A DNA stretch of 64,000 bases from Ginglymostoma cirratum (taxonomy: Eukaryota). How positions within the stretch are numbered: position 1 is the stretch's first letter; the number at the start of each line of letters is the position of its first letter. The DNA lies in assembly GCA_024137785.1 (NCBI GenBank), contig JAHRHZ010000013.1:18701010-18765009 (forward strand). Direction: 5' to 3'. Shown piece after piece: positions 19,647 to 55,940 of this stretch. The notes beneath the pieces are model-generated. The model ran no database searches. It saw only the letters and a program-made list of their open reading frames with translations, and was not told the DNA's origin. A program made the translations under genes and the position numbers.

Positions 19647-19795
19647 CTTGCAGCCTTCACAGGCACTGACTCCATAGTGATAGCCCGATGACTTGTCCTG
19701 ACACACAAAACAAGGTTTGTATACCCGTGGAGGTGGAATTGGAGACGGTGGACTTGGAACAATCTCTTCAGAACTGGTACTCTGTGTTTCAATTG
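19647..19795 (-). CDS. RARB: RARB common exon: proline-rich B region and first C4 zinc finger of the DNA-binding domain
   Basis: Acceptor ttttttcag|CA, donor AAG|GTAAGG, 149 nt. Joins the upstream exon in phase (T|CA = Ser) and reads [49 protein letters not shown], including the P-box start EGCK. Confidence 0.98.
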
Positions 19796-20994
19796 CTGAA
19801 AAACAAAACAAGTTATGCGTTCACTTATTTTTAAAAAGTAACATTAATACTGATAGAGAAAACACTGCAGAAGAGAATCACATAAACCGACTTTTTCAGA
19901 ATCCTCTCTCCCATCAATGTGCTAACAACCCCACAGCAAGAGTAGAAAAATTGGATGACCAGAATAAAAGAAGGAGTAAAGAGACAGAACACTATTTCTT
20001 CTCAAACACGATGATTCTATAACTGTGACTCTATGACTACCATGGATGGTGACCTAACCTCAAGTGCCATTACCCCTCAGACCACTGCCAATAAAATACA
20101 ACTTTAATACGTCATCCACACACATACAGCGTTTCTGCCAGTATTTAGTATTGCAAGAATTGTGAACACAACGCAGATTGAAAATTTTGGCATGAAAATA
20201 TGAGCGGAGGAGATTAGCTGTGTCCCACTCCTTTCTCAGGAATGTTTTCTTTCATAAAGCAATGAAAATATTTGGTGAGGAAACCAAATACACTTGGACA
20301 AAAATAATAATGATAGTTGAGTGAACAATTACCATAGATATAAATGCTATTTAATCATTACTTTGTTTTTCGTTGAAGAGCTGACATTTGCAGATACAAT
20401 CAGTCAACTGGATTCCTTCTGGGCTTTAAATTCCAGGAATCTATGGGGTTGATAATCAAAATTCATAGGATTCCTCTGTGACTGAGCCAACATATTTTCC
20501 AGTAAGCAGATGTCACCAGTGCGCAACTGTTCACAGTCCCACAAAAATTGACAGGATCAATCAGAATCAATGGCTGATGTGGAATATTCAACAGTTCACA
20601 CAGATGCAGTGGATGTTGGCCTTAGAGCACATTGGTGGGGCAAAGTGTGGGAAGCTTTATTCATTTCTATCATGCCAGATCTGAGTGAGGTTGAATTTCT
20701 CTGTGTTGGCTGTCAAACTAGAATAATACTGTTGTGTCCAGTACTATTACCTTTCACTTTAAACAACAATATTTTATCAATGGAATTGAATAAATGCTGA
20801 GGGTGGAATTTTCCTGTTGCCAGTGTGGCAAGATGAATGGCAAGCCAGGGTGAAGGATTCACAATGTCGAAAAACTCACCCAGTTAATATCTTCAAGTGT
20901 CCATTAGATGGGGAGTTCAGAATCTTGCCATCAAGTGGCAGCAAGTTCATTTTGATGCGTTTGGACCTCATGAAAAGCTGAAACTCACTATATT

Positions 20995-53860: not shown

Positions 53861-55099
53861 TCAACATAAGCGCGTCAAATTTTGTTTCTCGATTTGCATG
53901 AAAAAGCATCAAGTTTCCCGAAAAGGGAACCTCGAGTTATGAGAAACAAAGGTTGAAGGCAGAATGCGACTTTTGTTTAAAGCGGGTACAGGCGAGATCA
54001 CAATAGCAGGTTTGGACCTTGTTACAGTGGGATTTCGAAGAATTAAATAATTCAGTATTGTGATACGAATAAACGAAAAAAAACCTCCGCACCGAAAATG
54101 TCACTCGACAAATGTAGGAAGTGTCCTGCCAAATCTAACCAAAAAAAAACACGCACTCGAGTGAAAAAGCAGCAATAATGAAAACAAAATCGATGTTTGA
54201 CTGGTTATAATTGGAGTGCGGTGAAAAGCTCTGGTAATTTCTTTTGATGGTTTGATACTAATCTTTTATCCTCAATTCTCTGTTACCCGACCAGAAACAT
54301 ACAATTTGGCTCCTGATAAAGTCCTCACTTGTTTTCCTCTTTAAGAGCAGTTGCTGCTTTATTTGTGTGTGTGTTTTTTTAATATGAATGGTTTAATTTT
54401 GCGAGAGGAAACACGATCATGAAAAGGTACTTCATCTCACTGAAAATAATACATTAAACCTCCACCCAAACCGAACTAAGTGGAGTGCAAAACTAGTTCC
54501 AGAACTGTTTTAATAGCACTCCAGTTATTAAAATAAAACATCGAAATAATAACCGGTGGAAATGAATGAACAGAAGTGACACTTCCCTTGAAATTGTGGA
54601 GGGTGCTGCAGACAGACAGCTGAGGAGGGACTGCTGGAGATTTATTGAAATCACTGGCCGGCCACAGAGTAAGCCTCAGACTCAGCTCCTGTCCTGCTCA
54701 GACAGCGTCACAGAACCAGGGTCGGGTTTGCCACTCTTATGTCTTTCCTCACGTTTTTTGTAACGCTTGTGCCACTGTTTACCAACTGCATTCCTCGGCA
54801 CATGGAGGGGGGGGGGGGGCAACGGTATGAGCCGCGCAGTTGAAGTGACAAAAGTATCCAGTTACTTTTCAACTCTTGTCAGTCTGCCATCCACGGAGAA
54901 GCGCTCATGGAGATTAATATCGGTCACAACTAAGCACAACAAACAGTAGTGTTTGGGATGTGGGGAGGGGGAAGTAGGGAAAGCGGGGGGTACATGTGAC
55001 AGGAGGGAACTGTACTTCGAGAATTAAAAGGAAAGAGAGATAAAAATCCGCAAGATTTTGTAAATAAACATTATGAATAATAATGATAAAGAGACCTAC

Positions 55100-55256
55100 A
55101 TTGAGTGCTGTGCCTCTGTTGCCAGTCCCTGTGTGTCAGTCCATTGAAGCATGCAGTCAGAGCCTTCTCTTGCAGCATGCAAGAGGACGGGCTCGGAGTG
55201 TAGAAATCCAGCATTTGCCCAGGGCTGACTGCGAGCACATCCATACAGTCAAACAT
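55100..55256 (-). CDS. RARB: RARB isoform beta2 first coding exon (A region)
   Basis: Minus strand from ATG at 55256 reads [52 protein letters not shown]+T, the RARbeta2-type N-terminus. It is 157 nt and ends phase 1 at a T|GTAGGT donor (55094-55099). Confidence 0.97.
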
Positions 55257-55305: not shown

Positions 55306-55353
55306 CTAGGTGTGGGCAAATTTGCACAGAAAAAAAGTTGCTCCAACTCCCAT
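55306..55353 (-). CDS. upstream ORF (15 aa) [15 protein letters not shown]
   Basis: ATG at 55353; ends CAC ACC TAG, 49 nt before the main ATG. Confidence 0.6.
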
Positions 55354-55379
55354 CCAAACTCTTGCCTTTTGCTTTTTTT

Positions 55380-55451
55380 TTATTTTCTCTGTCCTCCCCT
55401 CTTTTTCTTGGCACGTGAGAACTGCTGGTCTTTTTCCCAGGGCAGAATCAT
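55380..55451 (-). CDS. upstream ORF (23 aa) MILPWEKDQQFSRAKKKRGGQRK*, uORF4-like
   Basis: ATG at 55451, TAA at 55380-55382. Shares MIxxWEKDQQ with the recalled mammalian RARbeta2 uORF4 (MIRGWEKDQQPTCQKRGRV). Confidence 0.72.
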   Translation of the reverse strand: MILPWEKDQQFSRAKKKRGGQRK

Positions 55452-55510
55452 GAATTATGACAGACAAGACAACTAAAAGCCTGTAATTGATCCAAATGAT
55501 CCTTTACCAT
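55448..55510 (-). CDS. upstream ORF (20 aa) MVKDHLDQLQAFSCLVCHNS*
   Basis: ATG at 55510; its TGA overlaps the ATG of the next uORF (ATGA). Confidence 0.7.
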   Translation of the reverse strand: MVKDHLDQLQAFSCLVCHNS

Positions 55511-55800: not shown

Positions 55801-55863
55801 CCTTTTGACCAGCTTACTTCCTACTCCTTATGTCACACAAGCACAGTAAAAGATTGAATTGCC

Positions 55864-55870
55864 TAATGTA
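55864..55870 (-). promoter_or_regulatory. TATA-box position (variant TACATTA)
   Basis: CATACATTAGGC, 6 nt downstream of the betaRARE, at the position where mammals have CATATATTAGGC. Confidence 0.6.
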
Positions 55871-55876
55871 TGCAAG

Positions 55877-55893
55877 TGAACTTTCTCTGAACC
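55877..55893 (-). promoter_or_regulatory. betaRARE: DR5 retinoic acid response element of the RARB P2 promoter
   Basis: Minus strand GGTTCA-GAGAA-AGTTCA in the context GGGTAG[GGTTCA...AGTTCA]CTTGCATACATTAGGCAATTCAATC. The classic mammalian element is GGTTCAccgaaAGTTCA. Confidence 0.95.
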
Positions 55894-55906: not shown

Positions 55907-55923
55907 TAACCTTCAAATGACCC
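55907..55923 (-). promoter_or_regulatory. Second, imperfect DR5 RARE of the P2 promoter
   Basis: Minus strand GGGTCA-TTTGA-AGGTTA, 13 nt upstream of the betaRARE; matches the recalled mammalian distal element. Confidence 0.8.
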
Positions 55924-55932
55924 AACCCAGCC

Positions 55933-55940
55933 TGACATCA
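55933..55940 (-). promoter_or_regulatory. CRE-like element TGATGTCA
   Basis: Minus strand TGATGTCA just upstream of the two DR5s, as in the mammalian RARB2 promoter. Confidence 0.7.

Follow-up and report, generated by a model that had tools for sequence, protein, structure and literature searches.

Upstream open reading frames of the RARbeta2 leader in Ginglymostoma cirratum and their AUG register in RARalpha2

The RARbeta2 first exon and its leader

The window analysed here, a 64,000-nt stretch of the 4.36 Gb genome of Ginglymostoma cirratum, carries the RARbeta2 leader on its minus strand. The retinoic acid-inducible P2 promoter upstream comprises an element at 55933..55940 that we take to be CRE-like, and that recurs in the teleost leader (L010) and the RARalpha locus (L002) discussed below, an upstream DR5-like element at 55907..55923 that is identical in the RARalpha2 promoter, a DR5 retinoic acid response element (RARE) of the beta-RARE type at 55877..55893 that is kept in both L010 and L002, and a TATA-like box visible in the sequence at 55862..55873. 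Comparison by eye with Fig. 1 of PMC2200052 would place the transcription start near 55836, so that the leader would measure about 580 nt, compared with 461 nt in mouse. The coding part of the first exon (55100..55256, minus strand), which encodes the A region and begins MFDCMDVL, runs from the ATG at 55256 to a donor at 55099. The next coding exon (19653..19795, minus strand, lower end approximate, acceptor at 19796) has CEGC in its translation and lies beyond an intron of 35.3 kb. RefSeq isoforms of shark RARbeta match the first-exon peptide with 100% identity, and a stretch of the shark RARbeta ligand-binding domain that is identical to the exon at the locus has RARbeta as its best PDB match; RARbeta identity, the RARE-bearing P2 promoter and the MFDCMDVL first exon are all found at this locus. 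Outside the window, in the last RARbeta coding exon (L025, G000:C13 near 18541900), the frame shifts after IPGSMPP at a run of eight C, and the expected continuation LIQEMLENS lies in another frame; the likeliest cause is a homopolymer error of the assembly. Three shark RARbeta isoforms (P0038, P0040, P0164) contain a 30-residue insert (SRQQGA...LLIPT) between the DNA-binding domain and the hinge, representing an alternative exon, and further nuclear-receptor matches some 0.7-1 Mb from each RAR locus (G000:C13 19.48-19.51 Mb; C56 2.37-2.45 Mb) are presumably what is to be expected of THR/NR1D neighbours.

Between the TATA-like box and the main start codon at 55256 the minus strand holds exactly three ATGs, at 55510, 55451 and 55353. 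The original prediction, made from the letters alone, had this count right, as well as the encoded peptides and the ends of the frames at 55448, 55380 and 55306. The first AUG of the leader opens uORF-A (55448..55510, 20 codons) in a strong context (-3 G, +4 G), the second opens uORF-B (55380..55451, 23 codons) in a weak context (-3 T, +4 A) and in the frame of the main ORF, and the third opens uORF-C (55306..55353, 15 codons) 26 nt after the uORF-B stop. Sequence comparison supports their orthology with mouse uORF2, uORF4 and uORF5, respectively. The predicted ATGA stop/start overlap joins uORF-A to uORF-B at 55448..55451, the WEKDQQ codons that had been singled out as a candidate nascent-peptide motif occupy 55422..55439 within uORF-B, and the main AUG sits 191 nt downstream of the uORF-A stop. 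ATGs are scarcer than chance in the leader, with three in 606 nt against a mean of 7.1 in dinucleotide shuffles (three or fewer in 3.85% of 2000 shuffles), and the first 350 nt contain none, which was the case in 1.1% of shuffles. The codon at 55501..55503, an ATG that starts uORF3 in mouse and human, reads AGG in the window, and the third frame is open down to the uORF-C stop. The absence of this start codon had been foreseen but its description as an extra mammalian ATG is to be dropped: it is an ATG in three carpet-shark gene models and is retained in the RARalpha2 leader of the same genome. Given carpet sharks among the third-frame proteins, the sequences identify the uORF3 ATG as ancestral and its absence in the window as a local loss.

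The uORF-A AUG is directly followed by a GT (55506..55507, minus strand) in phase 1 that fits the exon at 19795 and is likely a splice donor of the RARbeta4 type. We liken it to the mammalian beta4 donor on account of an in-frame CUG upstream of the human uORF2 AUG and of the exact mammalian donor position as we presume it to be; Nagpal reportedly described RARbeta4 in 1992 as an isoform with an alternative donor in the P2 exon and a CUG start. The human CUG lies three codons upstream of the uORF2 AUG (Fig. 1, PMC2200052), and the available text of PMC2797528 presents RARbeta4 as a CUG-initiated isoform arising by alternative splicing of the beta2 exon. Shark and mammal share the phase-1 GT after the uORF2 AUG and an open in-frame stretch upstream, but the shark has no CUG at the mammalian place and only GUG candidates. 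Splicing from this donor, if it occurs, would take out 408 nt, and with them the uORF bodies and the main AUG.

The leader in mammals, other vertebrates and RARalpha

The gene, promoter and leader of mouse and human RARbeta2 are orthologous to those of the shark, and their translational control is described in those parts of two earlier papers that were available. Zimmer 1994 reports five uORFs in the human and mouse leaders, overlaps between uORF2 and uORF4 and between uORF4 and uORF5, overlap mutants with tissue-specific derepression in heart and brain, and uORF mutants that alter protein and not mRNA (PMC2200052). According to Reynolds 1996, mouse uORF2 and uORF5 are required for efficient translation while uORF4 inhibits it, and the amino acid sequence of uORF4 is reported to matter (PMC2120959). 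The original prediction had named tissue-specific translation and the sequence dependence of uORF4, and its mammalian peptides agree with Fig. 1 of PMC2200052. In a comparison made by eye on the scanned figure, human uORF2 and shark uORF-A are identical at 18/20 residues and 60/63 nt, and the three differences all fall on third positions (non-synonymous in codons 3 and 14, synonymous in codon 13). The first ten codons of uORF-B differ from human at four nucleotides, of which three are non-synonymous (codons 3 and 4) and one is synonymous (codon 9). Eight of the first ten residues match mouse uORF4, after which two extra bases following codon 10 put the mammalian TCQK half into another frame in the shark. 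The ATGA overlap of uORF2 and uORF4, the position of uORF4 in the main frame and the HT* end of uORF5 are common to mouse, human and shark. On the other hand, the shark leader lacks uORF1 as well as the uORF3 start, and the uORF4/uORF5 overlap of mouse and human is replaced by the 26-nt gap, a lineage difference that does not speak against orthology.

Leaders of further vertebrates were seen through protein gene models. Searching by shared words for third-frame proteins gave no candidate, and a HMMER search with P0098 returned 29 proteins, four of them matching the leader part. The third-frame set consists of 18 proteins (7 distinct over 28 residues) chosen for a start at the uORF3 Met, including the three carpet sharks, and the second letter of each third-frame codon is a third position of uORF-A. 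Bird consensus and rattlesnake are identical at 39/39 third-frame residues, with no change at uORF2 third positions, and four more amniote-type sequences (a bird, a mouse-type, two unnamed) agree at 38/39. Over uORF-A the window matches birds at 16/18 residues, one of the two differences being synonymous, whereas 10/29 residues differ between the window and another tetrapod in the comparable shifted frame of the main exon. The corresponding deficit of synonymous-site changes (1/17 vs 9/28 in the main exon, one non-synonymous case dropped per side) amounts to a trend only (P=0.064). Conservation of the third frame equals that of the two uORF frames, so that synonymous sites in uORF2 and uORF4 are frozen as well; judging by the protein models, those of uORF2 are nearly so in amniotes, with the reading frames equally conserved. 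Conservation of this kind is what the original prediction had named as speaking against it, and the view that the peptides are what is conserved is not supported, though the changes are too few to weigh synonymous against non-synonymous ones in WEKDQQ. Conservation up to birds is already on record through the chicken RARbeta2 UORF3 entry (UniProt Q9DE22; 31 birds by UniRef label), which matches the third frame of the window at 23/28 residues and whose start codon is lost in the window.

The extent of the individual frames is labile. In carpet sharks a third-frame change from Y to D points to a stop at codon 9 of uORF-A, for which one base change suffices where Arg would need two, so that uORF-A likely ends early in these species; in P0225, P0229 and P0239 its stop is read through, and over all sequences uORF-A spans 7, 16 or 20 codons or is read through. 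Neither the frame of uORF-B nor its C-terminal region and stop are kept, given the frameshift in the window, 58 codons in a teleost and an in-frame fusion to the receptor in the snake P0072. Likewise, the stingray P0045 has uORF-C fused to the receptor, and carpet sharks, koala and P0098 have the third frame fused to it. RARbeta2 models that begin at a former uORF AUG (P0039, P0041, P0157, P0203, P0098, P0072, P0045, P0220) carry 22-107 additional N-terminal residues and may be real lineage-specific isoforms or products of longest-ORF annotation.

At the DNA level the comparison covers three distinct leaders, those of the window, RARalpha and a teleost. The teleost DNA comes from two metagenome records (2 loci from 170 candidates) that are two positions apart and were counted as one species; a viral scan for further leaders gave 0 matches, and a prokaryote scan gave three bacterial records that were taken as chance matches. 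This teleost-type leader has the same promoter as shark RARbeta2. Its uORF-A encodes MAKEHLEEAVEHFGSK* and stops 3 nt ahead of the uORF-B AUG without an ATGA overlap, and its uORF-B is the 58-codon frame, starting MIPLRDEGEE, in which 0/6 WEKDQQ residues are kept. Two blocks match exactly regardless of the frame: 12 nt with an ACGTG core (55405..55416, minus strand), which lie in a different uORF-B frame in the teleost, and 14 nt around the uORF-B AUG (55445-55458). We take the former to resemble an E-box/HRE-type core and the latter a POU/homeodomain-type site. An invariant ATGA overlap had to be discarded, with the frames uncoupled in teleost and RARalpha and the uORF-A stop lost in the three read-through models, and so had a strictly conserved frame of uORF-B relative to the main ORF (frame 0 in shark, 1 in teleost, 2 in RARalpha). 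Despite their lengths of 20, 16 and 7 codons, the uORF-A frames of window, teleost and RARalpha stop 0-35 nt before the uORF-B AUG.

The second RAR locus of the genome (G000:C56) is RARalpha by its best PDB matches and shares its promoter elements with RARbeta2. Its RARalpha2 first exon (L002 937-780) is 66% identical to that of RARbeta2, with more upstream AUGs in the leader; mammalian RARalpha2 is far less close to RARbeta2 than this. Only two RAR loci and no RARgamma were found in the assembly by a first look that was strict and may miss matches, and at two further matches to the promoter motif no RAR-type exon follows. P0227, P0228 and P0230 carry divergent first exons of the RAR '2' type (MFDYLDFEAFGPGEIMDFY...) that are 41-44% identical to the query, have no locus of their own in this assembly and are possibly RARgamma2 of a slowly evolving vertebrate.

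Aligned without gaps from the uORF-A AUG, RARbeta and RARalpha are identical at 26/31 positions, then at 6/27, and then at 8/9 at the uORF-B AUG, and the leader alignment score was reached by 0/300 shuffles. The two AUGs are spaced by 59 nt in both RARalpha2 and RARbeta2, with decayed sequence between the blocks. The RARalpha2 uORFs encode MVNEQLD* and MIPGPSHNNRSRTQT*, and identity runs on for 7 nt beyond the RARalpha uORF-A stop codon. Synonymous changes at 8 of 13 degenerate codons among the first 19 main codons argue against recent gene conversion. RARalpha and RARbeta separated in the early vertebrate genome duplications, and since they share the AUG register, the two-AUG layout would predate their duplication and hence the crown ancestor of jawed vertebrates, with the peptides having diverged since. 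The original claim that peptides and overlap date from the jawed-vertebrate ancestor therefore fares well as to the age of the orthologous uORFs, which this register supports, but not as to the conservation of peptides and overlap, given that all frames are frozen and that the teleost has RDEGEE. The conserved cassette is at least as old as the jawed-vertebrate ancestor and, by these alignments, probably older.

Peptide sequence, AUG position and nucleotide-level constraint

We lean, at slightly better than an even chance, towards upstream AUG position and spacing, rather than conserved peptides, as the means by which the cassette tunes RARbeta2 translation. The mechanism proposed draws on the genetics of the mouse leader and on the general rules of scanning. 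The majority of scanning ribosomes would initiate at the strong AUG of uORF-A and reach its stop right over the uORF-B AUG; having had no time to acquire a new initiator tRNA, they would skip uORF-B and resume initiation at uORF-C or at the main AUG, 191 nt on. Ribosomes leaking past uORF-A would instead enter uORF-B, which is inhibitory in mouse heart and brain, and cell-type differences in leaky scanning and reinitiation might thereby set RARbeta2 protein output. The freeze at the nucleotide level could be explained by the uORF-A AUG likely doubling as the exon end of the beta4-type donor and perhaps by DNA- or RNA-binding sites. AUG contexts and geometry, the RARalpha register, the frozen third frame and the fusions and frameshifts elsewhere support the positional account; a third-position lean in uORF-A, the synonymous-only changes in WEKDQQ and the reported sequence dependence of mouse uORF4 count against it. 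As uORF-A reads through uORF-B in P0225, P0229 and P0239, the shielding geometry is not universal. The arrangement resembles GCN4/ATF4-type reinitiation leaders, an analogy found in the available text of PMC2200052, in that a permissive short first uORF precedes an inhibitory one; in RARbeta2, however, the inhibitory AUG is not placed far downstream but coincides with the first stop in an overlap.

An unlikely alternative, which narrows the original prediction, is that WEKDQQ in the nascent peptide slows or stalls ribosomes in sharks and tetrapods, and that teleosts lost this element and RARalpha never retained it. Sequence-dependent arrest uORFs such as AdoMetDC MAGDIS and CMV gpUL4 uORF2 depend on residues adjoining a fixed stop, and the reported peptide dependence of mouse uORF4 is a point of likeness to them; the C-terminal half and the stop of shark uORF-B, by contrast, are not conserved. 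WEKDQQ is identical in window, snake P0072, human and mouse, a basic tail follows it in shark and mammal alike, and its two visible changes among the seven distinct third-frame sequences (K7, Q9) are both synonymous, whereas codons 2-4, with non-synonymous changes, and codon 11 onward vary. Two changes in 18 nt are nevertheless too few to part peptide from nucleotide constraint, the adjoining uORF-A block is equally frozen, and the teleost keeps none of the six residues. The distance to the stop also varies, with the stop at codon 20 in mammals and 24 in the shark and none in the snake P0072, and in the window, and apparently also in koala and P0098, the C-terminal half lies in another frame. 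Moreover, WEKDQQ had 0 matches in six supplementary files of the human Ribo-seq catalogue (PMC10032668). For sharks and tetrapods only, WEKDQQ stays a candidate on these alignments. That the selected peptide is instead the N-terminal heptapeptide of uORF-A (M-V/A-N/K-D/E-H/Q-L-D/E), common to RARalpha2 and RARbeta2, seems very doubtful. In codons 2-7 of window, RARalpha and teleost, 5/6 variable columns fall on third positions (P=0.004) and every change is either synonymous or conservative, a pattern that the main ORF shares and the promoter block does not; pooled with protein-inferred states, third positions outnumber second positions by 14 to 5 (P=0.03; proteins alone 8 vs 3, P=0.11). The three window-human differences at third positions, seen by eye, and the RARalpha uORF of exactly these seven codons point the same way. 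Yet the samples are small, the codon-7 boundary is partly post hoc and set by one of only three sequences, and the signal weakens on extension to codons 8, 9 and 10 (P=0.041, 0.055 and 0.17). Most of the changes are non-synonymous, koala P0203 implies L6 to S or a stop, the uORF-A stop ranges from codon 8 to read-through, and human uORF2, listed as Ribo-seq ORF c3norep30, has a negative PhyloCSF of -17.36 in mammals (PMC10032668, as far as available).

Both remaining readings involve the splice donor. It is quite unlikely that splicing and DNA-level control, through the beta4-type donor and transcription-factor sites downstream of the RARE promoter, account for the conservation of the whole block, with the shark uORFs as by-products of little translational effect. 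The GT follows the first AUG in both paralogues and is phase-compatible with the next exon, RARalpha identity passes beyond its stop codon, the 12-nt ACGTG block and the 14-nt uORF-B AUG block are indifferent to frame in the teleost, and the third frame is invariant between birds and rattlesnake, all of which would suit such a reading. In the teleost, however, the GT is gone while the AUG is kept in strong context, ATGs are depleted in the rest of the shark leader, mouse mutants are reported to alter protein and not mRNA (PMC2200052), and human uORF2 is translated according to the available part of PMC10032668. Folding of the leader is likewise no stronger than that of shuffles (z -0.12), and Rfam gave 0 matches to it at E up to 1. 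Similarly improbable is a combination in which the two-AUG module is an ancestral part of the retinoic acid-inducible RAR '2' isoform, older than the alpha/beta duplication and held in an exact 59-nt register in both shark paralogues, and in which the selected product is a heptapeptide (M-V-N/K-D/E-H/Q-L-D/E), not WEKDQQ, that overlaps the splice donor. If true, splicing could delete the whole translational brake.

Significance of the shark cassette

The RARbeta2 uORF cassette is a published system and its shark copy an orthologue; what is new, from the alignment of the two shark leaders, is the retention of both AUG blocks at their 59-nt register in RARalpha2. Neither this shared register nor the extension to sharks was found in the literature searched, which had subscription journals outside its scope, and WEKDQQ and related terms had no match there. 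Neither the ESUCA paper on animal CPuORFs nor a preprint on hyperconserved 5'UTRs mentions RARB in its main text; their supplements may list it.

Mouse RARbeta2 uORF4 is among the few vertebrate uORFs reported to be peptide-dependent, a claim that rests on transgenic work of the 1990s. The shark, teleost and RARalpha leaders act as natural mutants that part AUG position from peptide, drop uORF1 and uORF3 and shift the uORF4 C-terminus, which makes this old claim testable. They also call for caution, as peptide identity over more than 400 million years need not mean selection on the peptide when every frame is frozen. Finally, the AUG register common to the two shark paralogues suggests that RARalpha2 may be under similar control.
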